Assembly (NCBI GenBank): GCA_973895155.1
Contig: OZ316893.1
Coordinates: 248,001 to 312,000, forward strand
DNA from: Marsupella aquatica
Taxonomy: Eukaryota; Plantae; Marchantiophyta
Direction: 5' to 3'
DNA length: 64,000 bases
Made by a program: the position numbers and the translations under genes
Notes under the pieces: model-generated
What the model was told of the DNA's origin: nothing
The model's input: the letters and a program-made list of their open reading frames with translations, nothing else
Database searches by the model: none
Shown here: positions 12,106-64,000 of the stretch, piece by piece
Layout: every line of letters starts with the position of its first letter
Position numbering within the stretch: the stretch's first letter is position 1

Positions 12106-14361
12106 TCAGGAATCATTCTCAGCTACGGCCTCAGCCTCGGCTTCAGCCACTGTCTCCCCGGCGTGCTCAAGAGGTGGATCTGGGATACCGGCCTCATTAT
12201 TGAGTAGTCTGGCTTGGGCCGCGCCATCCCCACCTTTGGTGATAGCGGAATCTATTGCCGTGTTCATGCCGGAGGTTGGTGCTGGGTCTACCTCCTTGGT
12301 CACCACGGCCAGTGGAGTCGTATTACTCCTTGACCCTGAAGGTTTCCGCTTCTTCTTCTTTTCTGGTTCGGCAGCTGGTCCCTTCCCCTTCCCACTTACT
12401 TCCGTCACTGGTGCAGGTGGCGCGGCTTGTTCTTCGGCCAGTACCACTCCTGGTAACTTGGTTGCCCCAATTGGAGTTGGGCCTGATGCAGCTAAGCATT
12501 TGAATACTGCGGCTTGTTTCTTCAGCCGCTCAGTTTGGTTGTCGGCCCGCCGTTGTAGGTTCTCCATCTTCCTTGTGATTTCCTCCAACTCCTCCTGGGT
12601 CTCATCCAGGTCCTTACGTGCCTTCTCCAGCTCATTTTTGGCTTCCTCCAATTCCTTCTTGGTGGTAGCCCTCTCCTCCCGGGTTGCTCTCAGCTCCTTG
12701 TCGAGCTCCGCTACGACCTCAGACTCCATGTTATTCATCTTGGCATAAGTCTGGTCGAGCTGGGCGTCCTTCCCCCGCAGGTCGGCCTTGAAGCTGGCCG
12801 TCAGGGACGCAAGCTCCTGCTGTAGCGCAATAATCCCTTGATAGGATTTCCCTAACTCGGCCTCCTTCTGCTCAAGGACTCCGTGGATTTTCTCGAGCTC
12901 CCCCTTCAACGCCCTCTCCCTTCTCTGAGTCTCCGCCGTGACCCGGTTGTTGACTGCTATATGGGCCTCCTCTGCGTTTCTCAGCTCCTTCTTCCATTTC
13001 TCCCTGTCCTTGATTGCGTCGGCCAATTCTCCCTGGGTCTGAGTCAGTTTATCCTTGATAATCTGATTATCAGCCTACGCTGTGTCCAACTGCCCCTGCA
13101 TGATGTTCAGCTCATGCCACTTAATCCTCAGTTCATCTTGGGCTTTCTTGGCCGCCTTTAGATCTTCAATCTCGGCTTCCATCCTCCTAAGCCGCCGGAT
13201 GACCTCGTCCTTCTTGCTTCTCTTTAAAGCCACCGCTTCTTCTAATTGGTTCTTCTCCAACTGCTCCCTATGGAAAAAGGGTCCTACCTCCAACTCCTCC
13301 CCAAAGATGCTGAGCGCAAGTTCCCCACACATCTCACCATACTCCATGGCTCTATTCTTAGCGTAGGTGGAGTACATAGAAGTGATCGGCATCGCCCATC
13401 GCGGCCTCTGCTCCCAAGCCGTCTTGCGGATCTCTTCAATTGTGGCTAGAGGTTTGCTTCCTTTTTCGGCTAGCCGCCTGATGTCCTCCGGCCAATCTCC
13501 TCCTGGCAAATTCTTTTCCCTGGCCAGGGCTGCCTTCTCTTCCTGCCTGATTCGCTCCTGAAATTCCTGCCCTGTCTGTTTTATGCCGTCAAAGCTCGGG
13601 GGAGCAACATCTGGTGGGGGAGACTCAGGGCTACTCTGCTGGTTGGGGTCCCCTCGTACTACCCTTGGAAGTGTGGGGATAAACCGGCCACAGGTTCTTA
13701 CTCCTGGAACGTGATGGTCCGACCCATAGCCGGAGTTATCATGGCTGCAGTCCTCCACTGCCTCCTCTACTTCTTGGACTTCCGGCTTCTCCCTCTCTTC
13801 TTCGTCGGTAGGAGCTTCAGGCAATTCTGCCTCAGATTCAGAGCTTGAGACTCCCACGTACATTCGAACACCCGACTTGGATTCTGGCCTGATTCTGCTT
13901 AGGTTGACCTCTGGGGCAGTGTCCTGCATTGTTGCCGTTGCCGTTGTCATTGCTGATGCCGATCTCTTCTCTTTCTCCAGTAGTTTCAGCAGATTCTGCA
14001 TGCCTGGTTGCTGCATCGGCAAGTCCTCCGTCCTTGGCCTAAACACCTGCTCGATCGTAGGGCTAACAGGTGGTTGAGGCTTCTCTGCTACCGGCCTCGG
14101 TGCTGGGGCTTCCTCGGGTGCCCTTACCTGCAGGGGAAGTACTGGGGCAAAGGTCTGACCTCTGGCATACCGGCACAACAGCGGCATGTGATAGCCAAGC
14201 CGCGACACGCTCCCCATGCCGATTACCTGCTGCTCCTCCTTTAAGATCTTCTTCAATTGGTTGAGGAGGTACCCATTGTAGTCCCGGCTTGGGTCTGGCC
14301 TCTCTGCCAGATAGACCTGTGCCTTGCCGATCTCTGCCCTCGGCAAGTTACAATGCATGGT
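12106..14361 (-). pseudogene. LTR-encoded protein copy 2, C-terminal part
   Basis: ORFs 13075-14376 and 12106-13026 are near-identical to the 1121-aa protein. CAG>TAG stop at 13075. Confidence 0.9.
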
Positions 14362-15282
14362 TGTGGTGCGTCCCATGGCTCCCTAAACCCAAGAAACCCC
14401 CCAGCTCAAGCCGATTCCCGCAGGTTTCGTGCTTGGCGAGGCCGTTTCCGCGGCTTAGCGGCATGGGACGCTGCTAACCTTCTACTACTACTATTAACAT
14501 TTTACACACATATACTGGACAGATCCTTCATCGGGTCATGAGATACGTAGCCGGCCTAATATAGGCCTTCCCCTGTCTTCCCCTGTCTTCCCCTCCGTCT
14601 TGTTAGGTATGTTTGGATTCCGCCGCCAGAATGATCCCCAATAGGCTTGGTTAAGCCGCTAAGACCTCTCTCAGCTCGACACATCCAACTCTCACTCCCT
14701 TGCTTACTTTCCTTCCTTCTGTTGATGTGGGCACTCTTCACACAAGTTAATGCGACACACAAATAGCAAAATGACTCATTCTGACTGAGTCATACCATGC
14801 ACTTGCCATACAAACAGTACATCTCATACACAAGTTCTGCGAACTAAGCCGTGAGGCCAACTCTATTCAGCTCTTAGGCATGAGGAAACATGAATATACA
14901 CAAGGGTCACTGTATGACTAACCGAGAGCTTCTCGTACTACTTGATCCCAGCCCGGCTGGTGCAAACTAAAAACTTGCTAAAGAAGAGGCCCTGAGCTCC
15001 CCGCTGCCCAGGTACTTATCCTGGTAGTGGATCCGCCATTCTTTGCATCGTAAGCCTAATCTACCTGATAGTAATCTACTTGCCCGAATCTACCTATGTA
15101 CAGCAAGGCAGGAGCACAAGTGTTGCTCCTACCAGTGGAACCGCAATCCCACTAAGCTAAGTGTCAGGGCCGCTCCTGGTTCTAATCCTAATCCTAAACG
15201 TGGAGATCCGCGCCCGCCCTGCCCACTCACGCCTCCTCCCTCCACGTCCGCCCTCCCTAAAAGGAACGGCGCCCTTGCACCG

Positions 15283-18200
15283 TCACGACACCGGTGGTGG
15301 ATCCTCAATGGACGTCCCCAACACTTCCTCCTCAGCCACTGCCGTTGGCCCGCCTACTGACAGATTACCTGCCCTTGACCGAGTCAACTCTCCCTCGGCC
15401 TGACTGGGTCCACCTTCGGCTTCAGCCTCGACACTGGCCTCGGCAATACCCACGGCTTCGGCCTCAGCCACTCCCACGGCTTCGGCTTCAGCCACTCCCT
15501 CGGCTTCGGCCTCCCCTTCCCCTAGGGTAGTTGGATCCTTAGCCGTGACCCTGTCTGGGGTCGGTGCTGGGTCTACCTCCTTGATCACCACGGCCTGTGA
15601 AGTTGTATTACTCCTTGACCCTGAAGGTTTCCGCTTCTTCTTCGTTGGTGGCTCGGCAGCTGGTCCCTTCCCCTTCCCACTTACTTCCGGCACTGGTGCA
15701 GGTGGCGCGGCTTGTCCTTCGGCAATTACCACCCCTGGTAACTGGTTTGTCCCAACGGGAGATGGACCTGCTGCAGCTAAGCATTTAAATACTGCGGCTT
15801 GTTTCTTCAGCCGCTCTGTTTGGTTGTCGGCCCGCCGCTGTAGGTTCTCCATCTTCCTCGTGATTTCCTCCAACTCCTCTTGGGTTTCATCCAGGTCCTT
15901 ACGTGCCCCCTCCAGCTCGTTTTTGGCCTCCTCCTGCTCCCTGTGGGCTTCCTCCAATTCCTTCTTCAAGGTAGCCCTCTCCTCCCGGGTTGCTCTTAGC
16001 TCCTTGTCGAGCTCTGCAATGATGACAGACTCCATCTGGTTCATCTTGGCGTAAGTCTGTTCGAGCATCTCGTCCTTCTCCCTTAGGTCGGCCTTGAAGC
16101 TGGCCGTCAGGGACGCAAGCTCCTGCTGCAGCGCCATAATCCCTTGATAGGATTTCCCTAACTCGGCCTCCTTCTGCTCAAGGGCTCCACGGATTTTCTC
16201 GAGCTCCCCTTTCAACGCCCATTCCTTTCTTTGGGTCTCCGCCATGGCCTGGCTGTTGGCTGTTATGTGGGCCTCCTCTGTATTCTTCAGCTCTTGCTTC
16301 CACTTCTCCCTCTCTTTGATCGTGTCGGCCAACTCTTCCTGCGTCTGAGTCAGTTTATCCTTGATATTCTGATTATCAGCCTGCGCGGTGTCCAACTGCC
16401 CCTGCATGATGTTCAGCTCATGTCGTTTAATCCGCAGTTCATCTTGGGCTTTCTTGGCCGCCCTTAGATCTTCAATCTCGGCTTCCATCCTCCTAAGCCG
16501 CCGAATGACCTCGTCCTTCTTGCTTCTCTCTAAAGCCACCGCTTCTTCTAATTGGTTCTTCTCCAACTGCTCCCTATGGAAAAAGGGTCCTACCTCCAAC
16601 TCCTCTCCAAAGATGCCGAGCGCAAGTTCCCCACACATCTCACCATACTCCATGGCTCTATTCTTAGCGTAGGTGGAGTAAGTAGAAGTGATCGGCATCG
16701 CCCATCGTGGACTCTGCTCCCAAGCCGTCCTGCGGATCTCTTCAATCGTGGCTAGAGGTTTGCTTCCTTTTTCGGCTAGCCGCCTGATGTCCTCCGGCCA
16801 ATCCCCTCCTGGTAAATCCTTTTCCTTAGCCAGGGCGGCCTCCTCCTCCTGCTTGATTCGCTCCTGAAATTCCTGCACCGTCTGTTTTATGCCGTCGAAG
16901 CTCGGGGGAGCAACATCTGGTGGGGGAGACTCAGGGCTACTCTGCTGGTTGGGGTCCCCTCGCACTACCCTTGGAAGTGTGGGGACAAACCGGCCACAGG
17001 TCCTTACTCCTGGAACGTGATGGTCCGACCCATAGCCGGAATTATCATGGCTGCAGTCCTCCACTGCCTCCTCTACCTCTTGGACGTCCGGCTTCTCCCT
17101 CTCCTCTTCGTCGGTAGGAGCTTCAGGCAATTCTGCCTCAGATTCGGAGCTTGAGGTTCCCACGTACATTCGAACACTTGGCTTGGATTCCGGCCTGATT
17201 CTCTCCTTGTCTCCAGCAAAGGGGTTTTCTCTTGTGAGCCGGTGTAGGCCTACCTCTGTAGTAGTGTCCTGCATTGTTGCCGTTGCCGTTGTTGTTGCCG
17301 ATGCCGATTTCTTTTCTTTCTCCAGTAGTTTCAGCAGACTCTGCATGCCTGGTTGCTGCATCGGCAAGTCCTCCTTCCTGGGCCTAAACACCTGCTCGAT
17401 CGTAGGACTAACAGGTGGTTGAGGCTTCTCAGCCAACGGCCTCGGCGTTGGAGCTTCCTCGGGTGCCCTTACCTGTAGGGGAAGTACCGGGGCAAAAGTC
17501 TGACCTCTGGCATACCGGCACAACAGCGGCATGTGATAGCCAAGCCGCAACACGCTCCCCATGCCGATTACCTGCTGCTCCTCCTTTAAGATCTTCTTCA
17601 ATTGGTTGAGGAGGTACCCGTTGTAGTCCCGGCTTGGGTCTGGCCTTTCTGCCAGATAGACCTGTGCCTTGCCGATCTCTACCCTCGGCAAGTTACAATG
17701 CATGGTCACCCGCAAGAAGTCGATCATCTCTCCTATGTGCGGGTTGGTGCAGGTGTTCCGGAAGAAGCCATTCTTCGTTGATGGCCCGGGGAACGACCGG
17801 AACTCCTTGTCAGGCAAGGTCTTCCTGGTATCAACTTTGGTCTTATTGCCTATCGGCAGGCCAAACACTTCGGCAATTACCTTGGGAGTAAGATAGAAAT
17901 CCTTCCCATATATCCTCGTGCAATTGGTCTCGGGTTCCCATGACCCCACAAATTCTAATAGGTCTGACTCCGGTACCTCCGGCTTCAGCCATGGTAATCT
18001 TACAAAGGCCTCCAAGCCGGATCCAGCCATGAAGCCTTGGTACTTCTTGGTCTGCATGGCCGTAAAGCATGCATCCTCCTCCCGTGCAAAATGTAGTTGC
18101 ACCTCCACCGGTAGGGTTGCCGCCCAGCCCTTCCAGGTGTCATCCCTGGTTGGAATGGCCTTGATGGGATCGACCTCCTCCTCTTCGGCTTCTCCCTGTC

Positions 18201-18648
18201 TCCTGCTCTGCTGCTCGGCTGGCTTCTTTGGTGCCGCCGACCTCGTTCTTTTTGCCGGGGTGGCTTCATCGTTGACGGCTCCCTTCCTCTTCATCTCTGC
18301 TGCCGTGGAGGTTTCTCCTAGCACCGTTGCCTGGGTCCACCTTTCCGTGCTACCCTTTAATTCCCGGTGTATGTCGTTGCAGTTCTTGATGGCCTCTCGG
18401 ATGCCGACGACGCTGTCTTTGCAAAATAGAAGATCGTCGAGTTGATTGGAAGTAGGCGTCCACAGGAACTCGTCCTTGATGAGTTCGCCTCCTAAGAAAG
18501 CCGTCTTCTGCAGCTCCCACAATCGAGCGAGCTCCTGCTGTTCTCGAGCTGCCCTTTCTGATTCCTCGTCCTCGTAAGTCTTGATGTACTCAGTTGCCCG
18601 TTCGAACAGGCATCCCCAGAAATGTGCCGCTTGATTGACGTTGCTCAT
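15283..18648 (-). CDS. 1121-aa LTR-encoded protein: conserved N-terminus, plant-transposon-protein/PMD-like domain, acidic linker, long coiled coil, basic NLS-like tail
   Basis: Uninterrupted ATG-to-stop ORF. Motif GLEAFVRLPW..EFVGSW..IYGKDFYLTPKVIAEVFGLP is shared with four other ORFs in the window. Heptad repeats and KKKRKP are present. Confidence 0.85.
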   Translation of the reverse strand: MSNVNQAAHFWGCLFERATEYIKTYEDEESERAAREQQELARLWELQKTAFLGGELIKDEFLWTPTSNQLDDLLFCKDSVVGIREAIKNCNDIHRELKGSTERWTQATVLGETSTAAEMKRKGAVNDEATPAKRTRSAAPKKPAEQQSRRQGEAEEEEVDPIKAIPTRDDTWKGWAATLPVEVQLHFAREEDACFTAMQTKKYQGFMAGSGLEAFVRLPWLKPEVPESDLLEFVGSWEPETNCTRIYGKDFYLTPKVIAEVFGLPIGNKTKVDTRKTLPDKEFRSFPGPSTKNGFFRNTCTNPHIGEMIDFLRVTMHCNLPRVEIGKAQVYLAERPDPSRDYNGYLLNQLKKILKEEQQVIGMGSVLRLGYHMPLLCRYARGQTFAPVLPLQVRAPEEAPTPRPLAEKPQPPVSPTIEQVFRPRKEDLPMQQPGMQSLLKLLEKEKKSASATTTATATMQDTTTEVGLHRLTRENPFAGDKERIRPESKPSVRMYVGTSSSESEAELPEAPTDEEEREKPDVQEVEEAVEDCSHDNSGYGSDHHVPGVRTCGRFVPTLPRVVRGDPNQQSSPESPPPDVAPPSFDGIKQTVQEFQERIKQEEEAALAKEKDLPGGDWPEDIRRLAEKGSKPLATIEEIRRTAWEQSPRWAMPITSTYSTYAKNRAMEYGEMCGELALGIFGEELEVGPFFHREQLEKNQLEEAVALERSKKDEVIRRLRRMEAEIEDLRAAKKAQDELRIKRHELNIMQGQLDTAQADNQNIKDKLTQTQEELADTIKEREKWKQELKNTEEAHITANSQAMAETQRKEWALKGELEKIRGALEQKEAELGKSYQGIMALQQELASLTASFKADLREKDEMLEQTYAKMNQMESVIIAELDKELRATREERATLKKELEEAHREQEEAKNELEGARKDLDETQEELEEITRKMENLQRRADNQTERLKKQAAVFKCLAAAGPSPVGTNQLPGVVIAEGQAAPPAPVPEVSGKGKGPAAEPPTKKKRKPSGSRSNTTSQAVVIKEVDPAPTPDRVTAKDPTTLGEGEAEAEGVAEAEAVGVAEAEAVGIAEASVEAEAEGGPSQAEGELTRSRAGNLSVGGPTAVAEEEVLGTSIEDPPPVS

Positions 18649-18921
18649 ACCCTCCTTAGGTTGATCGTCGGTATCTACTCTCTCCCCGAGTGCTTGCCTA
18701 AGCAGCTGACAGTAGTTGGCCTCCCGTAGTCGTCTGCCTAGTTCGTGCTCGCAAATGAGCCACTATCTCCTGCAAGCGCTCCTTACCCCTCTCCTTTGCC
18801 GGTCCTTCTTCCCGTTGATCCTTCCTAGCCGCCGACGCTTAACGCGCCCTAACCCTAATCGGGTTTTCACCCTTAGCCTTACCTCCGGCCTCGGCCCGGG
18901 TTCCATGGTTGCCCCTAATTG

Positions 18922-18927
18922 TTTATA
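18922..18927 (-). promoter_or_regulatory. TATA box of LTR copy 3
   Basis: TATAAA on the minus strand, about 95 bp from the LTR 5' end and about 275 bp upstream of the ORF ATG. Confidence 0.5.
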
Positions 18928-19026
18928 TTTTCCTTGTTTTGTCACTATACTAAGGTGTTCCTAGGGTGCCTTCCTGCTTTACCCACTTAACCGGCCGAGT
19001 GATTCCTGTCTAGGCATCACAATGGT

Positions 19027-52204: not shown

Positions 52205-54295
52205 TTACAATTGATGTTGGAGTGCCTGGTTCTTCGATCGAAGACTTGCGACCTCTGTCTCTAACTTAGCTTGCATCTCCCCAAGTTTGGCTTCTGACTT
52301 GTTTTTGTCGGCCTCCAATTCTTTTGCGGCTAAGCCCAAGTTGTGGATCGAGTTGTCCCTTTCCTTGGCCAGGTCCTGAACTGCTCTGGCCAACTTGAGT
52401 TCCAAATCAGACACTTGCTGGTGCTTGGTATGTCGTAATTTCACCAAATTTGTGTTGGCGTCAGCGGTCGTTGCTTTCTTGGCTACCAGTTCGGCTCTAT
52501 ACCGAGTTTCGAGTATGGCTGTCTCCTGCGACACCTTACTCAATTGTATACAAACCGACTCAAGCAATTTCTTAGCTTTGGACGCCTCCTCCTCCTTCCG
52601 CCGAATTTCCTGCACGAGCTTCCGCAACTCCTCTTGTAAAAGGGGTGCAGCCTTCTCAATTGTTTGGGCTCCCTTTGGTGATTCAGCACCGGGTTGATAT
52701 TCCACAGTCGGAACCGTCTCGTATCCAATCGAGATTCTTGCGGGTGGTCCTACGGCCGGGTTATTTTCAGACTCGTCTCCGCCGTTGTTGTCAGCACAGG
52801 ATTCCGATATCGTACTTCTAGCCAGTAGAGCTAACCCCGAGGTGAATCGTCGGGAAAACAATTTCTCAACCTCATCGTCCTCGGCGTTCTGTACAGGAAC
52901 TCCCATGTCATCTCCTAGTTCTGTTTGGGACTTTGAGGTGTCGACCTCTACTGTCTGCCTTAGTGCCAGCGGCAGTGGTTTCTTACTCCACATGATAAAT
53001 GCTGGGTCCCGGCCTTCTACATCTTCTTGTCCCTTCCCTAGTCCGATTTGAGTGGGAATCTCTGCTGGCTGATGTAGTTGAGATCGAGCATGTTTTATGA
53101 TCAATGGCAAATGATAGGCCAGCCGGGAAACACCCCCAACCGACATCATTCTATGATTGGTATTCAACGCCTCCAACAATCTCTTGAAAAGAAAACCACA
53201 GTAGTCCACCCCTGTGCTGAGCTGATGTACCAATGCCACCTCATTCTTCCCAAACTCAGGCCGTCTCGGAGTAAACCACATCGTAACTCGAAGGAAATCC
53301 AGGATGTCGCGAGTCTGAATATTGATACATTCACAGCGCAAGAATCCGTTTACGTTGGGTGGTCCCTCAAAGTCCCTGCACTCGGTGTCCTTATCGTGAA
53401 CCATCCTGCCAATTTTAACCGGCTGTCCCAAGGCTAGCCCGAACACTTCGGATACCACCTTCTCTGAAAATTGGAATTCTCGACCAAATATATGCGTGAG
53501 CTTGCGCTCAGGATCCCAATTAGCTACGAACGTCATCATCTCTCTGTGGGTTATATCTTGGGCAGTCCAGGGTAACCAGACAAAATTCTCCAGCCCCGAC
53601 CCGTGTAGGAATTTGGGATACCTGCCCGAAACTACAACTCGGAATACATCGTCGTCATCCCGAATAAATTTGAGTCGAAGTTCCTCTGCTACCGTGTCAA
53701 CCCAACCCTTCCAATTCCAATCCTTTGGCGTCGATGTGGTGACCGCATCATCAATTCCTCCCGGTTCTTCCCCAGTCTCACTATTCTGACCTAGACTCGT
53801 TGGTGGCACTGTCGGTGTCTCGTTTCGTTGCGGTCGTGCTGACTCCCGACCTGCTCCACTCTTCTTTATTTTTGCCGGTGGCGCAGCGACTGCCTCTCCA
53901 TGTTTCTTCCCGCGTGCATTTGTTGCCAGCAGAGCTTGTTTCCCCTTGCTTCCTCGCCGTGAGCCTTCACCTAGCACAGCCTCTGGCGTCCACTTCAACG
54001 TCCAGCCTGGTAGTACCCACCTGTCGTCTGGACACCTATCAATCGCTCGCCTTACCGACAACAACTGATCCTCCTCAAACCAAATGCGGTTGAGTTCATC
54101 AACCGATGGTGACCATAAAAGATCCACAAAAATGCATTCCCCGCCGACGAATGCAACCTCAAGGAGCTCCCACAACTTTTGTATGAGTTGTCTCTCTTCA
54201 TCCGCTCGCTCTGGCTGCTGCTCTTCGTATGTTGCTATGAGTAGACCCCCGTACTCGAGAACACAGCCCCAATAATGTCTTGCCTGATTCACCAT
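52205..54295 (-). CDS. About 696-aa homologue of the LTR-encoded protein (start MVNQARHYWG)
   Basis: VNQARHYWGCVLE vs VNQAAHFWGCLFE; WKGWVDT vs WKGWAAT; GSGLENFVWLPW vs GSGLEAFVRLPW; SEVFGL; RLAYHLPL vs RLGYHMPL; C-terminal coiled coil. No stops. Confidence 0.8.
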   Translation of the reverse strand: MVNQARHYWGCVLEYGGLLIATYEEQQPERADEERQLIQKLWELLEVAFVGGECIFVDLLWSPSVDELNRIWFEEDQLLSVRRAIDRCPDDRWVLPGWTLKWTPEAVLGEGSRRGSKGKQALLATNARGKKHGEAVAAPPAKIKKSGAGRESARPQRNETPTVPPTSLGQNSETGEEPGGIDDAVTTSTPKDWNWKGWVDTVAEELRLKFIRDDDDVFRVVVSGRYPKFLHGSGLENFVWLPWTAQDITHREMMTFVANWDPERKLTHIFGREFQFSEKVVSEVFGLALGQPVKIGRMVHDKDTECRDFEGPPNVNGFLRCECINIQTRDILDFLRVTMWFTPRRPEFGKNEVALVHQLSTGVDYCGFLFKRLLEALNTNHRMMSVGGVSRLAYHLPLIIKHARSQLHQPAEIPTQIGLGKGQEDVEGRDPAFIMWSKKPLPLALRQTVEVDTSKSQTELGDDMGVPVQNAEDDEVEKLFSRRFTSGLALLARSTISESCADNNGGDESENNPAVGPPARISIGYETVPTVEYQPGAESPKGAQTIEKAAPLLQEELRKLVQEIRRKEEEASKAKKLLESVCIQLSKVSQETAILETRYRAELVAKKATTADANTNLVKLRHTKHQQVSDLELKLARAVQDLAKERDNSIHNLGLAAKELEADKNKSEAKLGEMQAKLETEVASLRSKNQALQHQL

Positions 54296-57200
54296 CGTTA
54301 TAGCGCGAATAAAGAATGACACCAAAGGATGGTTGAACCCTAAAAACCACGCCTCGCCTCGCCTCGCCCGCCGATAGCCTGAAAAGTGAAATGTGCGAAT
54401 GAACAGTGTTTCATATGCGTCGCCTGATGAAAGCATTGAACTACTTGAGTATGAGAGAGATGCCCCGAGCAGAATATGCGACTGAGTGTTTCTTGTTGAG
54501 TGACGCTTGTACTAAGAATTAAGTACCCTAGTACTACACGGTGATGCGGCCACCACACCCTTCGAGCTCAGTGTTCGTCGTTAGAGCGGCACTGGCACTG
54601 GTACTAATAACTACCCTACTTCTACACGGGGATGTGCCAACCCCACCCATTCGAGCTGTACGGTAGGTAGAAGCGTGAGCCTGAAGGTCGCCTGCTCTAA
54701 TTGATCAATTTACTTCAAGCGGCGAAGTTTTTGCTTCATTGGCACGCCGGGCTTTGGTGAGTGTTTAGATCCAGGGTAGAACCAGTATATATAATAGGGA
54801 TGGGCACCTTTCGTTTTCATTATCAACATAATATATATTTCAAGTCCCTATTAATATCTCTTCTGTGGCAGGCGGGTTAGGGTCGGGGTATTGTTCAGAG
54901 TTTAGGGTTTAGAACAAAACAATGTGTGAAAAAAATTTCTAAGCAGGTCAGCTTTTGTATAAGATTTGAGTTAGGTGTGTTTTTAATTAGTAGTTACAAA
55001 ATTAAGTGTGACTATAACTAAGGTAATTAAGGCCAAGATTATATAAGATTTGGGTCAGGTGTGCTTTTTATTGACTTATATCACCAATGGGAGTGGCTGG
55101 ATTTAGGTTAAGACCAAGAATTCGAGGTGTCTCAATGTTGACTTGGAATTTTCTGATCCATGAGGGCATCCCCTTTGGCATACTTATTTGCTAATTGTTT
55201 ACATGGTCATGATCGAAGAGAATTTTTCAGTGCTTCCTTAGTGGTCTCATAGTACTAAAGAGACAAAGTGCCTGGTGTGAAAAGTTTTGCTTTGTCCAGG
55301 GGTGAGGTCACCCCAACGTCACTCTCATATTACCCAATTTGGCCCAAAAGCATAGTGGACCACGAATACGTTTGCTACAGAGTGACTCAATGCAAGTAAG
55401 CAGTCAGTCCTCCGAGACAAAGGTATTCTTCTTCCATGATGGCACCACTCTTGTCAACTCAATTCCAGGTAACTCTTGGTTTTTCATCAATAACTGGAAA
55501 ATGACATTGGACATGTTGCAAAGATGGGTTTTCATCCATAGAGTTTAGGGTTTTCTGGAAACAACTACAGAGTACACTCTAGTAGTCGTGTAATTTAGTT
55601 CAGCCTTTGTGACTGACCCGCTCGGTCACAGGCCTGGTATAATACTAGCTGGGACTACTGTACTTGTCCTTTGAACGTGAATAGCGGCGAGGAGAAAATA
55701 AATGTAGACTAGAAGCTATTGTTCACGCGTACGGTCTAGAGTGAAGGCTCTAGACCATAACTCTAGGGTCAAAAAATTGCGGGTGCTGACGGAAAGTGAG
55801 GGTGAGGAGTAACACGACGTAGGGGAGCGCAAACTAGGTCAAAAGTAGCATAAATCTCAAAGTGGGCGGTGCGGCAGATCTGGCAGTGTCACACGGGAAC
55901 GCGAGGGTAGGTGCACAAGGGAGCCGATGGATATTGCGATGGCGGTGCGTGGGAAAGCACAGGAGCTACGTCCTGTGAATGCAAGGGAAGTTCCAGCTCA
56001 GTAATGATCGCTCAAATGCCATTTCATTTTTGCTTTGCTGTTTGATCGTTGTTTTGCAGATCATTGTCCTCGACAATCATCCCAGCTTGCATCCTCAACA
56101 ATCATCCCAGCAGCAAACGCAAGCTTACAGAGGAGCGGCCTTTTGATTGGAGCCCACTTTGCTTTTCATTTCCTGGTGAGACATGTAAACAAACTGACGT
56201 ATTATTTTCACTCGACTCAATCTACTTTACTGCTTGCATGTGGCAGGATGAGTGTAAGTCAAATCGAATTATTCTCGGCAAAGGTTTTGAATTCCTCCCC
56301 GCAGGTCGCTCTGGGTAGCCCTGGTCCAGGTTCGAGGTAGCAACCTCTGCTACAGATTTTCGCCTCTCCCTCTGACGACTCCCGGATCCACTCCTACTGA
56401 GGAGACCGTTGAGAGATGATTCATAAAGCTTAGCATTACTTTATGTGGAGTTCTGTGAGTGGACTGCTCATGAGATTGATCGATCGCGGAATCCTTTGCA
56501 GGTGTATGGTGCTGCGGTGAATCTTTGTCAGGGCGAAAGAACTACCTAAAGCCCTGAGTGCAAACAACACTGCGCGACTACTATTCATGGACGGTACTCT
56601 ACTGCTTCGGCACAATTGATTAGTTGTATGCAAGAGGCTTTGCTTGGAGTCCAGTAGTGCTTAGCGCTTGGCTCTCTCCGATTACAGTGACTCACATATT
56701 TCTTGTTGAACGTTTTTTTCTGTTTATAGTGATGCGATAGTCGACGTATGATCATGCAACAACCAAAATCACAGCGTCGGCAGCTAGCTTCGATACGGGA
56801 CGAGCATTTCATGCTTGATGTGAATAGTTGTATGTTCTCTCGCCCATCGTGACACGATTTGCTATCTTACTCATAAAGCGCCAACTACAAGGACGAGTTG
56901 GGGCCTAGGCTTCTAAGACCCCAACTGTAGGTTGTAGTTGGCGCTTTTATAAATGAGACATTTCAAGAGTTGGAATATGGAATACATTTTGTTTACATTT
57001 TATTGTACTCTCCTCAGGTACTGACGTTTAAAGAACGGGTAGTCGGTGCTAGTCTTAAGTAATGATGAAGCGGGTTCACGACCTAGGGTGTAGAGTTAAC
57101 CCTCGAGACCGTCATTATGGGGGCTTGTTGAACTTGGGAGCGAGGGTGTGTTCCAAGGATTGGGGGCAGGGTGAGTGTTTTGAAAACACAACGGGCTTGA

Positions 57201-59354
57201 GCGTAAATGCATTCCAAAATGCGTGAGCTGGGAAAGAGTTTGAAAATCAATACTAACGACTTGAAACCGAGTCTGTGGCCATGGTGATGAGCTTTCCAAT
57301 TCATACAACAATGTTTTCAATCGCGTCCACCAGAGACACACGTAGTACTACAAAGATCTCTTTTCGATAGATCTCAACTGCTCGAACTGAACTTAGCTAT
57401 TTAAGTTTGGGGTTCATTCTTGATTCAGCCCTGCCAATCTACTCTCCACCTCTTGCTGATGCGGTTGTGCTGTCAAATTTAGTGGGACATTGCAATGAAG
57501 TGAGGCACTTATTTTTGTTATTTGTCAATGTGGACAGGAGGAAATTCAATTGATTCACTAGGAGCTTCGATAGATTCAATTGGTTCTCTGTAGTCTGAAA
57601 TTTTAGCCTGTCCGGGAGCCCTGTCATCTAAAATCGGAGCCTCTCTTCGCTCCTTGCACTCCTCCTTCGACAAGCTTGAATGTGGATCTACTCGAATGCC
57701 CGTTCTCTCTTTTCAGCTCTTAGCTGCACGGATGGAAACTGGCGGAGTGTGCCTATTGGAGCTCATGTTTAGTATACAGCAGTAGCAAGAAAATGATCCA
57801 AGCAACAAGAGCGGGGCGGGGCGGGGCAGGGCAGGGCAGGGCCGGGCAGGGCAGGCGGCTGTAACCCATGTGGTGGTCTCCATCGGAGGCCAAATCCAGT
57901 GCTCTGTGAGAATTTTGACCGATGCCGTTTCCTCATTTTTTCCAGTTCAGCTGGGTTTTCTGGTGTTTGCATGTGCGACAAAAGGTCTGACCTTGAATCG
58001 GGTATTGGCATTGTTTTGTTGATCCTTTTACCTAGCGAGGGTTGAAAGTGGAGGGTGGATTGGATCACGGTGAGAGGCTTCGGGAGGACCCAGTGGTTGC
58101 CCAGATCCTGCTTGGATCACGGTACAACAACAGCAGGTGCAGAAGACATAGAAGAAGTAGTAGTTTTTGTTGACGAGTTCTGAATTGGATTAGGCTGAAT
58201 TAATTGCAGTGGTGATGGGCGGAACTGTGGCTCAAGTTAGTAGTACTCTCATGATTCCCGACAGTACCCTGTGATTTTGTAATCCTGTGAAAGACAAAAA
58301 TATGTCATTCACCAAGAGGCCATCTTCCAAGGAGACGACCTGGACGTGAATTTGTGTTTGGTTCTGACGAATTTGTGATTCAGCGTTGTGGAGAGAGTTT
58401 AGGGTTGTAAAATTCTTTGGAATCCATTTTGCCATGTTTTCATTTAGGGGTTAATCTGGGCCGAGGCTGATGCTGCAAGGTAGAGCAGCACAGCTGGACA
58501 TGTTCCATCGCCATCGGTGTCCCATATGCGAGAAACATTTGTTGCAGCCTGGCCAGTTGATGTTGATTCTGGCAAAAAGTGGCAGGGAATCGATTGGCAA
58601 CTACCCCAGTCCAGCCCAACTATCAGTACTCAGCAGCTTATTGCAGATAGAGAAATGGCTTCAGTATAATAAGCTTAGAAGAACAGGTTGCAGTGTTGCA
58701 CTCCTATTCAGCATGGAAAGCATGACGTGAGTCTTTTGGAGATTCCAAGTAAATGATCAAAAAGGAGCTGGGGCTCTCTTCAGCCGGACTATATATGAAG
58801 CAACCTGAAAGAATTGTTGTCTTCAGTTTCGGTTTTTTTTTTCAATCAGGTTAAATTGAAGCCAAACGTTTTTCAATTCATCGTATTGTACAACACACGA
58901 GCTATCAGATTTGGAACCTTTTAAATAACTTGGTATCATTTGCGTGAAGAAGATCAATCCAATTTTGTACAATAATCCAAACAAATTTCTGCGCGCTGTG
59001 ACGCCACCGGTACGGCGGTTAATGAGTGATTCAGTCTAACTGCGCTCGGCACGCGCGTTGGGTGGGTCTTAGGCCGCTATTATTAGCATAACGACAGTAT
59101 TTAGGTAATCATTAGGGGTAGGACATCATTAGGCAATAAGGGGGACTTCAGGTTCGGGCTGGCGGCGGGTCGCTATTCGCACACCCGGGTTACGAGCGTG
59201 GAAGGGCCCCTCCCTCGGGTCCGTATAACGAACTTAAGGAAGCGGCCACTGACGCACGCTGACTCAAACCAGCGGAGTGGCCGGTACACCACAAGCGTGA
59301 GCGGTTCAGCCTATGGGCGTCGAGGAGACGTCGGGGATCGACAAGCCCTCAAAG

Positions 59355-59361
59355 TATAAAA
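59355..59361 (+). promoter_or_regulatory. TATA box
   Basis: TATAAAA about 360 bp inside the LTR and about 100 bp upstream of the ATG at 59463. Confidence 0.6.
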
Positions 59362-59462
59362 GGGGAGCCAACCCTTTGTAGTGCACCAGTCCATCAGTCT
59401 GCGCGCCAGCTTCGACCCCAGCTCTCTCGTTCTCTCTAGGTCGCCACTACTATCTCCTCTGA

Positions 59463-62117
59463 ATGTCGCACACGATCCTCTCCAGCTCGGCCATTTGATT
59501 CTGGACGCAGTTCCTATCTACCGGAAGGCACTTGGCCGATTCATTGAAACACGCCAACCCGCGCCGATACGAAATCGAACGCGAATACGAGAGAGCCATC
59601 CGCCTAGCAGGACGACACCACTACGTCCTTAACTTTGACTACCCGTCTCAGAGCGAGCTTTTCCGACCAGTAGAGGTATCTGGGTACTTCTTCAACGGAG
59701 ACAAATATATCGGGTTTTGGGAAGCATTGCTTCGGCTTCCGGACAAGGTCTTCAACATCCCGGGTACAATCAACCTGCAGCGATATCACTTTGACCACAT
59801 CCCTGCCCGGGTTTGGGCTGTCATTAACGGCGAGTCTAGTACCAACCGTTCGACAAGGGCGTCCGCACTCGCTTCGGAGAACTTCTACCAGCACCTGCAG
59901 AGCTTCATGGGAACTCGGCCATCAACCAACATGACCAACTCAACCGTGCTCGTACCCGTACCCATGCCCATGCAACCCCAGCCTCAACCTCAGGCTCAGC
60001 TTCAGCTTCAGCCTCAGCCGCAGCCTAGCCAAACCCCACCACCTATCACCCAGCCAGCACAGGTACGCTCCGTCATCAACGCTGTGGATCTTAGCGATGA
60101 CGACGAGGCTACCCCACCCTTGACCAGGCGGCCCAGAGGAACAAGCGCTCGGGGGGCCGACACTATATCGTCCCCACCCCCTGCTCTGACCCCAGGAGCG
60201 GCCCCAGCAGACAACATGGTGACCGTGGCCGCCCCGGGCCCGTTACCAACGGCAGTGGCACTCCCCAGGCCCGATCGGGAGGATGGGGAAGTATCACCTT
60301 CCCCGAGTCAGTCACGGGGAAAGAAGAGGAAGGAATCCGCCACTGCATCCGGGTTACCGTTGGCCACGGTAGCCGTAGCCAAGGTGATGATGCACCGCAT
60401 GGGGGAAAACATTCACAGCAACATCCTCCATCCCAAGCATGCGGTGTACCTGAAGACTCAGGGATTTGAGCACCTCACCTCTCTCCCCTGGAACACTTGC
60501 AGGTACTACGGGGAGGACATGACAGAATTCGTCAAGAATTATGATGACGTACGTCAACAGACTCGGCTGCGGGGAAGGAATATGTCCCTCACAGAAGAAC
60601 GGCTCAAGATGATCTTCGGGTTACCCGAAGGTGACCATCGAGTCGAATCACGGGCTCCCGGGGGCAAGGGGGCCAAGTACCAATCTTCAAGTTTTCCCTC
60701 AGAGGGAGCAGTAGACAACGGGTTCGTGATGAGGACCTGCCTCATGCCCGAGATAGCTGAGCGGCTGGAGTTCCAAAGGTACGCTCTCCACATGATGGAA
60801 CCCCGGGGGGAGATCTCCGCCGCCCAGGTTATCCAGGTCGAGAACTATCGACCTAGGAAATGGGCGTCGTACTTCGCTAAGAAATTCCATGAAGAGATGG
60901 AGCGGCGAAGGAAGACGCTGTACATTGGCGGGAAGGCGTATTTCGCTAGCCACATCGAAATCATTCTTGAGTGGTACGCCCGGTTTGATCGACGAACCCT
61001 TCCCCGCATCAACGTTACAAAGCTGGTCCCAGCTAGGTGGGTTTTTCCGGCATTGGAGAGACGGCCCCAACCCAAGGCCCGAAGTCCAGTGGACACACCA
61101 GCTTCACCCACCCCACCTCCACAAATAGCTGTAATCGTAACCGAGGAGGCGCCGGAGGGGTCGGTCGGCGCAACCGTTGATGCGACCCAACTAGCCGGGC
61201 TAAGTACAGAAGTTGGTACGGCAGAGGTCTTACCCAAACCCGGGTCTCCCAAGGACCCACTGGTGGCAATTCCAGAGAACCGGATATTGTTGCAGGAGGA
61301 CACTCCAGCCCCTTCCAACGTTATGTCCCCAGGGCTGGACGTCACTGCCCCGGCCCCTACGCGTGTTGACGTCTACCCGTGCCCAAATCCGGACAGACAC
61401 AACTTGGACCACCCGGAACTCTTCGTACAGGATACGTTTCTGAACGGGCTTCTGGGAGATTTCTCTCATCAAATTTCCCGGGATACCGGGGAGTTCATGG
61501 CCCAGAAGGTAGCCTGTTTCTTCAATCAGGAGTTGGTTGCCGCAGTAAAGGCAGGTCGGGCCCAGTCGGAGGCCCTTCAGAGGATAGAGCGGTACCGGGT
61601 GGAGTCCGTGTACCTAAAGAATGAAGTGGCGGCTCAAGAGGCTGAGCTTCTGCAACTACGACCCAAGGTTGCAGCCGCCGATGAGTTGTTAGCAAAGGCG
61701 CACGCTCTTACCGCCCTAGCCGAACAGGCCAAAGCTGGGAACGAGGCTGAGATTACACGACTCCGGAACCAGATTGACAGTTTGAAGAAACAAGCTGTCA
61801 CGTGCCAGAAAGACCTGGAGGAGGCCGAGGAGCGAGCCCAGCGGGACACGGCGGAGATAGCCACGCTACAGGCCGAGATAGCGCGGCTCCAAACCGAGGC
61901 CGAGAAGCAGGATCAGCTGGTGGCTAAACTGACGAGCGATGCCCAACAGCTGGAGGAGGCATGTCAGGAGCCAGCAGAGGAGACGGACGCGGCGAGGCGA
62001 GAGAACGAATCTCTGCTGGACCAGGTCCAGCTCCTCAAAGCGGACAATGACAGGCTTCGAAGGCAGCAGGATGGCCGTTCCCATTCGGGCGGCTCTGGCA
62101 AGCGTGCCAGGCATTAG
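59463..62117 (+). pseudogene. LTR-encoded protein, family B (about 884 codons; single early TGA at 59496, otherwise open)
   Basis: ATG 59463 is in frame with ORF 59532-62117 (MSHTILSSSAI*FWTQFL vs MSNVNQAAHFWGCLF). GFEHLTSLPW..EFVKNYD..LRGRNMSLTEERLKMIFGLP; C-terminal coiled coil. Confidence 0.8.
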
Positions 62118-63024
62118 CGGCGGAGTAGGAATAGATTAGGATTAGGATTGGCTTAGTCAGGCTCTTGGGACAGGCACCTGCCTTAGGTACAGCAGCGCTG
62201 CCCTGCTGTCCAGCCTGCGTAGATTAGGATCTTCTAATAAGACACAGCCGTTTTCCGGCCTGACTGTCAGCTTAGTTAGAACCTTAGTCAGCGAATCTTC
62301 GGCGAGAGGACACCCCGTCCCTCGGCCCTTAGTATTTAGTGCACCCCTCGGTAGAGGCAGGGGGGTTTTTAGTTTCAGAGTCGGACATCCGCGGGATATG
62401 CGGGGAGTCCCGACCTCTGGGAATGAAAGAGTACCAAGGGGAGGGGTAGGACTAAGCTCGCCGGGCGAGTGCGGAGCCGGGCTCCGTTGTAGTGTGCACC
62501 CTCGGCCTTGAACCTGTTCATTCTAGGGCTGTCGGGTCAACTAAGTGTACGCATATGTTCCCTTTGTAGTAAAATCCTTTCCCATCATTTTCCTTCGTGT
62601 AAATCGAGATTGTATGCATGTGTGCGCATATGTGTGTGGGTTTCTCGAATATGGGTGGCAGCGCCAGGCCGAACGCACTACCCGAGACGTGCACAGGGTG
62701 CAGCCTGCGGGTAAGTGGTTGTGAGCACGGGTTGGGGACCTGTATCATCGAATCCGGATTGAAGGCGGACACCACAAAGGCTTAGAAGCCCTTAAGCCGG
62801 GGTCGATCCTGCTATCGACTAAGGTACGTTCCGGCGGCGGAACACAAACCATACCTAGGAGGTGTCCGTATTTAGCAGTAGGCGCACTTAGCGCTAGTTT
62901 ACGAGAATAAGGTGCATTACGTGCTTCCCTTCCTGCCCGAACCCTCAGATTTACGAGGGATGTGCCCGTCTACGCTGAAGTCTGAGTTAAGGCCGAAGCC
63001 TGTGACGTGACATAGCCTTTGTTT

Positions 63025-63042
63025 TGGCGCTAGATGGAGGGG
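63025..63042 (+). promoter_or_regulatory. Primer binding site, Tat-lineage-like
   Basis: TGGCGCTAGATGGAGGGG, 94 bp before the gag ATG. Resembles the TGGCGCTAGAAGGAGGG PBS I recall from Tat/Retand elements; the priming tRNA is not determined. Confidence 0.7.
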
Positions 63043-63135
63043 GCACTCTACATATCGTAGAGGGGAGACATGTGCGTATTCACCTAGGCAGGATACATCA
63101 GGACGTAGTACTAACCATTGCATTTATATGAGTAA

Positions 63136-64000
63136 ATGCCCGTCACTCGTTCTCAAGCAGCTTACTTGAGGAGATTGACCAGCAAACGAGAAAGTGCAAC
63201 CACAACAAGCTCCGACTCGTCGGGCTCGGAGGACTCGCAATCGTCCCGATGTATGAACATACCCCTGGGACCTTCGGGGTCCGGTTCGACCGGCCCTGCT
63301 GCGGTTCCACCACCACCACCACCACCACCTATGGCAGCCGCTCCACCGGTGGCCCGCGCTGCTCAAGCGCCTCCACAAATATCGCAACGATCGCGATTTC
63401 ATTATCGACCTTTCAAAGGGCGTCATGGGGATGATCCGGATGAATGGTTGGATGAGTTTGAAGCCACTGCTAAAGCTAATGGGGAAGACGCCATTAAGCT
63501 AATCGTCCTCCCGGGAGTGATGCGGGGAGAAGCTCGTCCATGGTACAACTCGTTACCACCTGGGACTACCTGGGCACAATTCCAAGCTGCATTGCTGCAG
63601 GAGTTTCGTGCCATTGGATCAGAACAGCGTTCTCTATTAAAGATTGGCCAGCTTCGCATGGGAAAAAAAGAGTCCCTGCGGAAGTTCATTCAAAAGTTTC
63701 AGAAACTTGCGGCCAAGATCCGGCCCAGACCAGGAGACGCACTCCAGCTTACATGGTTCCTTCATGGTTTGCCCACGAATATGCAATTATGGGTACGCCA
63801 GAATAATCCAATTTCAATGTAGGCAGCCATAGCGTGCGCCAAAACTTACCGGGAGTCCACCTATAACTCCCGGTGGAACCAGCGAGCATGCCGCAGGAAG
63901 GGTAAGTACGAAACCTTCAGTGACAGTGACTCCGAATCGGACGACGAGAGGAAGAAGAAACGCAAGAAGAAGAAGAAACATCGTTCGACCTCGTCCAGCT
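63136..64000 (+). pseudogene. gag: Retrotransposon gag (premature TAG at 63820, frame continues to the window end)
   Basis: PFKGRHGDDPDEWLDEFE..GEARPWY..TWAQFQAALLQEF..QLRMGKKESLRKFIQKFQKL..WFLHGL is a typical gypsy capsid region. Confidence 0.88.

Follow-up and report, generated by a model that had tools for sequence, protein, structure and literature searches.

A conserved gene with a predicted VANC-like fold very probably lies within the 4-kb long terminal repeat of a liverwort Ty3/gypsy element

INTRODUCTION

The accessory open reading frames (ORFs) of OTA retrotransposons include Athila ORF1 (PF03078/PF20167), the PMD-coiled-coil ORFs of Ogre/Tat (PF10536) and Retand TRP28, as set out in the available parts of four reports (PMC6317226, PMC4408406, PMC7264820, PMC11963269). 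OTA lineages are also described, in the accessible text, as having long terminal repeats (LTRs) of up to ~5 kb and 5-bp target site duplications (TSDs). Athila is delimited by its RT clade and the lack of an extra RNase H, Tat by its RT clade and the position of an additional RNase H (aRH); Tat elements Z1/Z2 without aRH were reported in Marchantia (available part of PMC10508981). For TatII elements, REXdb lists 5′ (23%) and 3′ (26%) sense eORFs. The liverwort locus described here resembles OTA elements in its large extra sense ORF, which combines a core domain with a coiled coil. Unlike the OTA ORFs, which the accessible descriptions place internally, before gag or after pol, it lies upstream of the primer binding site (PBS), inside the repeat unit. 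It also differs in having no Pfam match at cut-off and in an additional domain at its N terminus, for which the PDB gave no clear match.

VANC21 of VANDAL21 (PDB 9lnk/9lnj) is likewise a transposon-encoded accessory protein, in which variable linkers and a coiled coil accompany a conserved core, according to the available text of PMC5735166. VANC was called dicot-specific in the accessible part of PMC13547354. The same fold occurs in the host MAIN/MAIL proteins (excerpts of PMC13547354 and 10.1101/2024.09.27.615353), and therefore the fold does not fix function.

A protein gene within an LTR, present at both element ends and using its own LTR promoter, is described for MMTV sag/naf in the available part of PMC9412291. 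In contrast to the liverwort locus, MMTV is an animal retrovirus with unrelated products whose sag lies in U3; the ORF reported here takes up 2.65 kb of a 4-kb LTR. Retrosat2, RIRE3 and RIRE8 share with it LTRs of >3 kb and an extra sense ORF (ORF0) upstream of gag-pol, although the accessible text treats LTR and ORF0 as separate parts and the likeness is drawn from description (PMC3485330). No report of an ORF within plant LTRs was found among the papers listed by the literature searches, mostly outside subscription papers, and nothing relevant was found for Calypogeia. Two of the listed papers concerned, respectively, MMTV sag and a host gene that lies within an entire element.

RESULTS

Layout and ends of the 4-kb unit

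All positions refer to the window, the whole stretch of 64,000 nucleotides of Marsupella aquatica DNA that was analyzed. A sequence-only reading had proposed a gypsy element with an ORF upstream of its PBS, and the layout it gave stands: TG at 58997, a TATA box at 59355, the ORF, an 895-bp tail, CA at 63012, the PBS at 63025 and gag at 63136 are all present in the sequence. The likely 5′ LTR (58997..63012, plus strand, 4,016 bp), delimited by sequence, contig edges and depth, starts with TGTGACGCC and ends with GACGTGACA, giving the TG...CA ends of a Ty3/gypsy LTR. Directly before TGTGACGCC lies CGCGC (58992..58996, plus strand), the candidate left copy of a TSD. The terminal inverted repeat comprises 9 of 11 bases; at 9 inverted bases, the end at 63012 ties with three others among 289 CA ends, so that the inverted repeat alone cannot fix the LTR end, which the contigs place better. 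The window contains 38 TG...CA pairs with a 5-bp duplication and 7/9 inverted bases. A TSD and inverted ends thus prove little alone, and we rejected them as stand-alone proof of an LTR. The likely LTR promoter (59355..59363, plus strand) consists of TATAAAAGG, the sole match to TATA[AT]A[ATG] within 58997-63012, followed by a CT-rich leader. Its distance of 359 bp to the start of the LTR is what an ordinary LTR would show.

Contig edges and depth define the unit beside the PBS and gag

Public contigs came from four runs (X1 to X4) of two studies, one of which runs may be the source of the assembly. One low-depth flank contig stops exactly at 58996, another continues past this position with 33 unlike letters, and a third contig begins exactly at 58997. 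At the other side, contigs or loose ends exit the window at 63012-63014 in three of the four runs (X1, X3 and X4), with a contig exit and a loose end at 63014 in X3 and a loose end at 63012 in X4; agreement beyond these exits was 0.58 to 0.65, corresponding to unlike flanks. Several contigs cross the unit end into the spacer or the PBS. A loose end before 63022 in X2 was considered as a second family with the same 12-nt spacer, but this was dropped; since it resembles the reverse complement of a family-A start, a nested insertion appears more likely.

Depth (a sum across contigs, which the tool itself states is no copy number) was 64 to 640 in the flank; low depth to the left of 58997 implies that no LTR remnant lies upstream of the unit. 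The lowest of the 21 depth bins over 59052-62915 exceeded the highest of the five gag bins in all four runs. No depth step was seen near 62.1 kb, and ORF and tail stayed above gag throughout, although some tail bins in X4 reached ~1.6 times the highest ORF bin. Near-identical single contigs gave ratios of LTR end to PBS-gag of 3579:1005 (X3) and 4999:1428 (X4), i.e., ~3.5:1. Places in the 5′ part of the ORF with two to four contigs showed values of 1,849 to 3,946 (X3) and 1,687 to 5,612 (X4), all exceeding the PBS-gag contigs. The public contigs therefore support one multi-copy unit of 4,016 bp with edges at 58996/58997 and 63012-63014. These contig-defined unit edges beside a PBS and gag are new here.

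Related families in the window support a probable location of the gene inside the repeat

The window holds three families of homologous ORFs, of which the unit at 58997 represents family B. Family A includes a 4,660-bp solo-LTR-like unit (14362..19021, minus strand) with TG...CA ends and ACCAT on both sides, which carries an intact homologous ORF of 1,121 amino acids (15283-18648). With its 5-bp duplication, this unit splits an ORF of its own family, and the 5′ piece of the host copy lies at 19022-19968. Two more nested, broken family-A copies (8511..14361, minus strand) have the same 3′ end (at 11044 and 8511). Both resolvable family-A insertions in the window sit in their own family's ORF. 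The third homologous ORF (52205..54436, minus strand; family C) was recognized by homology, and no LTR ends with a duplication were found around it. An old relic of the family-B tail (2918..3458, plus strand) is 70% identical to 62320-62854. The terminal motifs of families A and B had been described as matching. This holds for the 5′ end (8/9 bases), whereas the 3′ ends differ (GACGTGACA versus GCACCACA); the noncoding spacing of ~0.9 kb said to be shared is 895 bases here versus 921 in family A.

The position of an ORF upstream of a PBS, alone, is not proof of an LTR location. Because the contig edges, the depth without a step near 62.1 kb and the family-A unit that splits a homologous ORF with a 5-bp duplication all agree, the earlier proposal that the gene lies inside the LTR is very probably correct.

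The probably LTR-borne ORF is old and, in family A, under purifying selection

The ORF (59463..62117, plus strand) spans 884 codons from the ATG at 59463 and makes up 66% of the likely LTR. The frame is long and homologous, as had been stated, but codon 12 (59496-59498) is an in-frame stop, and the open part is 59499-62117. Its 872 stop-free codons are far beyond chance (maximum of 305 across 300 shuffles). The product shares 28% identity over 185 amino acids with that of ORF 15283-18648 (E 4e-18) and 23% with that of ORF 52205-54436 (E 2e-12). In the database, 79 relatives were found at E<=1e-3, the named ones being from Calypogeia fissa; relative P0088 matches over its full length with 28% identity (E 5e-98). 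No exact match in the protein collection was obtained for any of 10 window proteins, no match came from word-index searches of proteins, either for the core of the ORF or for long relatives of gag, and profile scans for related loci yielded 68 viral and 236 metagenome contig candidates, none of which was confirmed. Selection was measured on family-A copies only: all three comparisons gave dN/dS values well below 1 (0.27, 95% interval 0.14-0.49; 0.32, 0.24-0.43; 0.28, 0.19-0.41), with 0.11 to 0.21 in the core, which shows purifying selection on the family-A ORF. An old and conserved architecture, as first proposed, is thus upheld by the full-length relative, the three families and the family-A values of 0.27 to 0.32. 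The family-B copy at 58997 is itself likely dead, as in-frame stops are present in both the ORF and gag. Of 28 listed variant positions classified in unit and gag, 23 are C-to-T or G-to-A in the window copy, which indicates that it enjoyed no lasting protection against decay of the methylation type.

The core domain is predicted to adopt the VANC21 fold

A conserved helical N-terminal domain (59499..59849, plus strand) was modeled confidently (pLDDT 86) without a clear PDB match; the best Z in the structure search was 4.6, and Foldseek gave no match. For the core domain (60360..61001, plus strand; model pLDDT 93.6), the structure model predicts the VANC21 fold of the DUF1985/PMD/Transposase_32/ATHILA group. 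Among 48,161 chains, VANC21 (9lnk_A) was matched with Z 8.4 (rmsd 4.1, 201 of 214 residues aligned; next Z 2.4), a value barely above the typical best Z of this tool for unmatched models (7-8). VANC21 was also rank 1 in Foldseek (TM 0.57, probability 0.99, E 0.019, 8% identity). The match of the predicted core to the VANC/DUF1985 fold is of moderate strength. Atlas leads of 0.80-0.89 (<0.9) pointed to DUF1985, PMD, Transposase_32 and ATHILA and are taken as leads only.

Pfam DUF1985, PMD (PF10536), Transposase_32 and ATHILA gave no match at E<=1 in the three window ORFs, and among 34 scanned homologues two matched Transposase_32, at 17 bits against a cut-off of 45. Neither of the Athila ORF domains (ATHILA or Transposase_32) was thus recognized in the three window ORFs, and the ORF, upstream of the PBS and without a PF10536 match, does not fit the internal PMD-coiled-coil ORF of Tat/Ogre. 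A sequence-profile search of the PDB returned coiled coils only and not VANC21, and the viral fold library gave nothing at E<=0.001. Nor was the combination that marks VANC, a DUF1985/DUF287 sequence match within a VANDAL host element, found. The ORF product differs from VANC21 in its 8-10% identity and in its host, a retrotransposon with gag and PBS instead of a Mutator-like DNA transposon. A tandem target-motif array as in VANDALs was not found in the noncoding DNA of the unit; ACTAAG occurs seven times in the tail versus 0.5 expected (P 0.007 in one of 18 tests, uncorrected).

The C-terminal region (61566..62078, plus strand) is coiled-coil-like, with weak coiled-coil Pfam matches below cut-off. 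The protein carries basic nuclear localization signal (NLS)-like motifs and a basic KRAR motif at the extreme end of the ORF. No transmembrane stretch was detected in the family-B protein; the maximum 19-residue hydropathy was 1.27, versus 0.98 for the family-A protein A1. The best reading of the model is an accessory protein of the PMD/VANC/ATHILA fold group.

Tail, PBS and gag

The ORF is followed by a noncoding tail (62118..63012, plus strand, 895 bp), the likely end of R plus U5. TGTA has a role in plant polyadenylation, and a T-rich cluster with five TGTA motifs (62488..62614, plus strand) provides candidate upstream polyadenylation signals by motif count. Five TGTA in 150 nt were reached by 8 of 2,000 shuffles; family A was weaker (105 of 2,000). 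By match to the splice-donor consensus only, AAG/GTACGT (62821..62829, plus strand) is donor-like, and it is kept as GAG/GTATGT at 3428 in the relic copy. The best block shared with the family-A tail has 29 bp (62829..62857, plus strand; local score 36, reached by none of 300 shuffles).

A 12-nt spacer (63013..63024, plus strand), at which contigs exit at 63012-63014, separates the LTR end from the PBS TGGCGCTAG (63025..63042, plus strand). The PBS had been taken to mark the end of the 5′ LTR; it does lie near that end but is not flush with it. It is a putative match to tRNA-Asn; PBSs for tRNA-Asp or tRNA-Asn are characteristic of Athila. The share of tRNA-Asn PBSs is 12% in Athila, 15% in TatII and 4% in Retand (PMC6317226, supplement file 3, as available). 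ARAGORN and Rfam found no tRNA gene or Rfam RNA in the window. Scans with PBS-spacer patterns yielded 10 and 8 loci; homology to gag or the ORF accompanied none of them, and they were taken as chance. The sequence across the LTR end and the PBS is predicted to form a hairpin (z -2.2).

A branch-point-like TACTAAC is followed, at the first downstream AG, by a weak GAG acceptor three bases before the gag ATG (63109..63132, plus strand). The gag gene (ATG at 63136; 63136..64000, plus strand) runs off the window and follows the PBS, as expected of a Ty3/gypsy element. It matches Retrotrans_gag (PF03732, E 4e-9, 37 bits versus a cut-off of 24) and Ty3_capsid (E 0.03) and has seven relatives. An in-frame stop is located at 63820-63822, after which the frame is open to the window end.

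DISCUSSION

Taken as a whole, the reading that we cautiously favor is that 58997-63012 constitutes a Ty3/gypsy 5′ LTR, two thirds of which is a conserved gene for a predicted DNA-binding protein of VANC/PMD fold that would likely counter silencing of its own family. Within this reading, a sequence-specific DNA binder is probable; an anti-silencing role is plausible, if somewhat doubtful. The protein could oligomerize via its coiled coil, bind short motifs in its own LTR and recruit or block chromatin factors.

On balance, the gene would lie in R rather than U3. Transcription would start ~30 bases past the TATA box at 59355, which would place the gene in R; its position downstream of the only TATA box points the same way, unlike that of MMTV sag in U3. 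Polyadenylation after the TGTA cluster, at ~62.6-62.7 kb, would give an R of ~3.2 kb and a U5 of ~0.3-0.4 kb. Every LTR, solo LTRs included, would then be a full promoter-gene-terminator cassette, the genomic RNA would be a read-through product from the 5′ LTR, and minus-strand DNA primed at 63025 could jump anywhere within the long R. The earlier figure of ~3.6 kb for R plus U5 holds only if the 59355 TATA box sets the transcription start. Even with this start, a 3.6-kb strong-stop DNA is not forced, since a partial strong-stop DNA can be transferred while the copying of R is still incomplete, although most retroviral transfers are full length in the available part of PMC6088434. A dicistronic RNA with gag second, also proposed before, found no support: 44 ATGs would precede gag on RNA from the 59355 promoter, and splice-like signals surround the PBS, which makes it at least as likely that the gag mRNA is spliced or that a second promoter exists. 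The RNA for Gag-Pol would likely be spliced or have a start of its own.

A location in U3, in the manner of MMTV, where the available text describes sag as driven by its own promoter (PMC9412291), is possible but less likely. The genomic RNA would then start within the tail, from a second promoter at 62.2-62.9 kb, R plus U5 and the strong-stop DNA would be short, gag would be the first ORF, and the 59355 promoter would drive the accessory gene only; an Athila-type 3′ accessory ORF might have been absorbed into U3 as plus-strand priming moved upstream. Such an arrangement avoids the 44 upstream ATGs and an R more than 10 times the longest retroviral R cited in the accessible part of PMC6088434 (247 nt), and the conserved donor-like site at 62824 together with the branch point ahead of gag would suit an intron in the 5′ UTR of a transcript from a tail promoter. 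The purine run at 62436-62446 might represent a relic polypurine tract, and one family-A copy has TATAAAAG ~140 bp from its end; the run is, however, not kept in the relic copy. The sole TATA box, at an ordinary distance from the LTR start, argues against U3, as does the family-B tail, which has no TATA match (one of three family-A tails has one).

With the architecture of the favored reading, the gene product might still do another job, an alternative to which we give rather little credence: it could simply transactivate the LTR promoter (Tat/Tas-like) or guide integration to its own family, without silencing marks being removed. The fold is common to DNA-binding VANC and to PMD proteins of varied roles (10.1101/2024.09.27.615353), and for the Retand TRP28 ORFs the available part of PMC11963269 proposes a role in transcriptional regulation. 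The sole solved structural match, however, is an anti-silencing factor. Guided integration would fit the two family-A insertions in their own family's ORF, but nested insertion is common among LTR elements generally, and the family-B copy at 58997 sits in low-depth DNA.

It is improbable that the 4-kb unit is not an LTR, being instead a separate ORF-bearing mobile unit (e.g., MULE-derived), or that a short true LTR (e.g., 62447-63012) adjoins an ORF belonging to a neighbor. Mutator-like DNA transposons are hosts to VANC and to some PMD genes (available parts of PMC5735166 and PMC4408406), the relic at 2918-3458 matches the tail only, and family C is without clear LTR ends. Against a non-LTR unit stand the low depth left of 58997, the contigs running from the unit end into spacer or PBS, and the TG...CA ends and 5-bp duplication of family A; nor does a step in depth or a series of loose ends point to a start inside the unit. 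A short LTR starting after the purine run at 62436 was rejected, as the bases that follow are TA and not TG, no depth step is seen there and the relic has lost the run. Finally, an env-like membrane protein for particle spread is very improbable: Athila 3′ ORFs of a related Pfam group were called env-like (available part of PMC7264820) and the coiled coil would fit, but the protein has no transmembrane helix, carries NLS-like motifs, resembles a DNA-bound nuclear protein in its predicted fold and matches no viral fold at E<=0.001.

Returning to a gene within R that counters silencing, a more far-reaching model can be proposed, which we regard as speculative. The liverwort gypsy LTR would be a self-contained anti-silencing gene that unites promoter, VANC-fold ORF of 2.6-3.4 kb, target motifs and terminator in one repeat with an R of ~3.2 kb. 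Solo LTRs would be working genes that unsilence the family in trans, Gag-Pol would be made from spliced RNA without the PBS, and the "env-like" ORFs of Athila, Ogre and Retand would represent the same counter-defense elsewhere in the element.

Plant retrotransposon LTRs are treated as noncoding, and solo-LTR formation is seen as the host's way of disarming an element. A conserved LTR gene breaks both assumptions, as it is doubled with each insertion and survives solo-LTR formation; leftover single repeats would retain a gene that may shield the family. If the gene lies in R, this R would be an order of magnitude longer than retroviral ones and would test how first-strand transfer works and how the 5′ polyadenylation site is read through. 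The fold match suggests a function, open to testing, for the accessory ORFs of Athila, Ogre and Retand type, which have long lacked an explanation; if true, it would carry VANC-like anti-silencing beyond the DNA transposons of dicots to the retrotransposons of early land plants. Liverwort gene annotations may also include LTR-borne ORFs: five of the 10 homologue clusters that were checked correspond to annotated C. fissa proteins.

A reading frame very probably inside the LTR of the family-B element

The layout proposed for the family-B element was read from the sequence: TGTGACGCC at 58997, preceded by CGCGC; TATAAAAGG at 59355; a long frame ending at 62117; 895 noncoding bases (the tail) to GACGTGACA, which ends at 63012; the primer binding site (PBS) TGGCGCTAG at 63025; and an ATG at 63136. 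The frame opened by this ATG, claimed as gag, matched Retrotrans_gag above the cutoff and carries an in-frame stop at 63820-63822. The open reading frame (ORF), described as having 884 codons, exists but is interrupted by an in-frame stop, at codon 12; its 872 stop-free codons compare with at most 305 in 300 shuffles. The PBS is not flush with the long terminal repeat (LTR): a 12-nt spacer (63013-63024) intervenes, and other copies show a T-run length variant there.

The edges and depth of the unit were followed in contigs from four public sequencing runs, X1 to X4 (of nine listed; two studies), one of which may be the source of the assembly. At the left edge, one low-depth contig stopped exactly at 58996, a second extended past that point by 33 unlike letters, and one more began exactly at 58997. 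We infer an insertion boundary plus an empty allele or a paralogue. At the right edge, contigs or loose ends departed from the window at 63012-63014 in X1, X3, and X4; the loose letters agreed poorly with one another, and other contigs continued into the spacer or the PBS. Summed contig depth does not equal copy number and served as a relative hint only: flank bins to the left lay at 64 to 640, and in all four runs each of the 21 bins over 59052-62915 was deeper than any of the five gag bins. No consistent depth rise was found near 62.1 kb in these runs; some X4 tail bins reached about 1.6 times the highest X4 ORF bin. In near-identical single contigs, depth at the LTR end was about 3.5 times that at PBS-gag (3579:1005 and 4999:1428), the kind of excess that two LTRs per element together with solo LTRs should give. 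The edges and depth thus support the claim of the sequence-only reading that the ORF lies inside the LTR (58997-63012; 4,016 bp), which we consider very probable, in a window that ends in gag. One X2 contig suggests, at 63022, a reversed family-A-like LTR inserted at the very end of the family-B LTR.

The window copy carries C-to-T or G-to-A changes at 23 of 28 classified variant positions in the unit and gag (drawn from 40 of 361 listed, with 12 flank positions left out). This copy is aged and likely dead.

A protein core predicted to resemble VANC21

Reading from the N terminus, the LTR ORF protein has a helical domain, a low-complexity linker, the core (about 210 residues), another linker, and a coiled coil. 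Basic NLS-like motifs are present, and no transmembrane stretch was found in it. A four-sequence profile search returned 79 relatives among 1.84 billion representatives; annotated Calypogeia fissa proteins made up 5 of the 10 homologue clusters looked up, the other clusters having no species assigned, and four of seven gag relatives came from the same species. These matches make a leafy liverwort the likely host. One database relative, P0088, aligned end to end (28% identity; E, 5e-98). The family-A copies gave dN/dS values of 0.27, 0.32, and 0.28, with every bootstrap interval below 0.5, and their tails diverge by only 4 to 8%.

Pfam found no named domain in the three window ORFs, only weak coiled-coil matches; Transposase_32 appeared far below the cutoff in 2 of 34 scanned homologues. 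Atlas leads, all below 0.9, were DUF1985, PMD, Transposase_32, and ATHILA. The N-terminal domain has a confident predicted fold with no clear structural match. The core model (pLDDT, 93.6) matched DNA-bound VANC21, the VANDAL21 anti-silencing protein, with a Z score of 8.4 (rmsd, 4.1; 201 aligned; runner-up Z score, 2.4) and, by Foldseek, with an E value of 0.019 and a TM score of 0.57. Both programs ranked VANC21 first among solved structures for the predicted core; the match is moderate and lies well apart from the remainder.

According to PMC5735166, VANC proteins bind short motifs within the element that encodes them and act in trans to remove methylation. PMC13547354 and 10.1101/2024.09.27.615353 liken VANC structurally to MAIN/PMD and predict coiled-coil pentamers for both VANC and the Athila domain. 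An anti-silencing role for the LTR ORF protein is a serious but still tentative possibility. The tail holds seven copies of ACTAAG where 0.5 would be expected, thin motif evidence from one of 18 tests; GTATTTAG occurs three times in family-B noncoding DNA and once in an old tail copy (the relic, 2918-3458), which was not significant after shuffling. Family-B noncoding DNA held no tandem motif array. Sense-strand TTAG clusters lie soon after the LTR start (59069-59129) and soon after the ORF stop (62114-62369), with similar places in family A.

Expression of the gene and of gag

Downstream of the unit's sole TATA match comes a CT-rich leader, and the ORF ATG lies 108 bases on. A T-rich cluster of five TGTA (62488-62614) was reached by 8 of 2,000 shuffles; the family-A cluster is weaker (105 of 2,000). 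TGTA marks plant polyadenylation regions. Judged by the TATA and this cluster, U3 would measure about 0.4 kb, R about 3.2 kb with the gene inside, and U5 about 0.3 to 0.4 kb, so that each LTR would form a complete transcription unit. The rival reading puts a second promoter in the tail and the gene in U3, as PMC9412291 describes for sag of MMTV, a known case of a gene inside an LTR.

With the gene in R, the proposed 3.6-kb strong-stop DNA would be an upper bound rather than a fixed length, since partial strong-stop DNAs can transfer early; PMC6088434 describes such transfer, most retroviral transfers being full length, and gives 16 to 247 nt for retroviral R. A dicistronic RNA would place 44 ATGs ahead of gag. 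The 70%-identical relic retains, at 3428, the donor-like site found at 62824; TACTAAC lies at 63109, and the first AG after it (63131-63132) adjoins the gag ATG. The donor-like site and a weak GAG acceptor would bound a candidate gag intron, as a lead only; such splicing would remove the PBS from the gag mRNA. Integrase usually trims a few bases and would need to go far beyond that if the spacer were on the cDNA end. Overall, the full mechanism is narrowly favored.

The gene would work in the manner of the accessory ORFs known from Athila, Ogre, and Retand elements, which PMC6317226, PMC4408406, PMC11963269, PMC11728184, and PMC7264820 place in the internal region. No report of a gene inside a plant retrotransposon LTR was found in the literature searched, most subscription papers being outside its reach. 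TatII elements carry sense eORFs 5′ (23%) and 3′ (26%), according to supplement file 3 of PMC6317226; these could hide the same layout, since an ORF present in both LTRs would leave this pattern. New at 58997-64000 are the contig-defined edges adjoining the PBS and gag, a test of the predicted fold in a divergent family, and the candidate gag-expression signals.

Related families and other features of the window

The 4,660-bp family-A unit (14362-19021, minus strand) runs from TGTGATGCC to GCACCACA, has ACCAT on both sides, and contains an intact 1,121-aa homologue of the LTR ORF. Such end marks alone are weak, because 38 pairs of TG...CA-type ends with duplications like these occur in the window; those of family A do count, since the unit interrupts a homologous ORF, the two parts of which join at the duplication, and three copies share an identical 3′ end. 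No PBS followed any family-A copy within the window. The terminal motifs said to be common to families A and B agree at the 5′ end (8 of 9 bases) and differ at the 3′ end. Their tails share one 29-bp block (0 of 300 shuffles), at 62829-62857 in family B and about 242 bp from the 3′ end in family A, with a short inverted repeat inside. Kept across families whose proteins are <30% identical, it is possibly a packaging or processing signal. The three nested family-A copies span 8511-19968 (minus strand), and both resolvable insertions lie within the family's own ORF, which may reflect self-targeting.

Family C has the ORF (52205-54436, minus strand), but clear LTR ends were not found in the window, a gap in the pattern. 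A second, LTR-end-like TGTGACGCC (50086-50110, plus strand) lies about 2 kb past this ORF; a matching duplication was not found. A 192-aa ORF (48193-48771, minus strand) has a faintly core-like start (blastp E, 0.3 to 0.8) and may be a fourth, distant relative. The window also holds a further PBS-like TGGCGCCAG at 5173, unconnected with the family-B element; a broken Ty1/copia element (22886-24376, minus strand) with copia gag and pre-integrase domains; an AT-rich 438-aa ORF (26473-27789, minus strand) with a weak match (E, 0.12) to a family of Tet-like 2OG-Fe(II) oxygenases; and, at 35600-36160, 36245-37059, and 2316-2553, an 18-bp repeat array and a repeat family with an inverted form 34 kb off.
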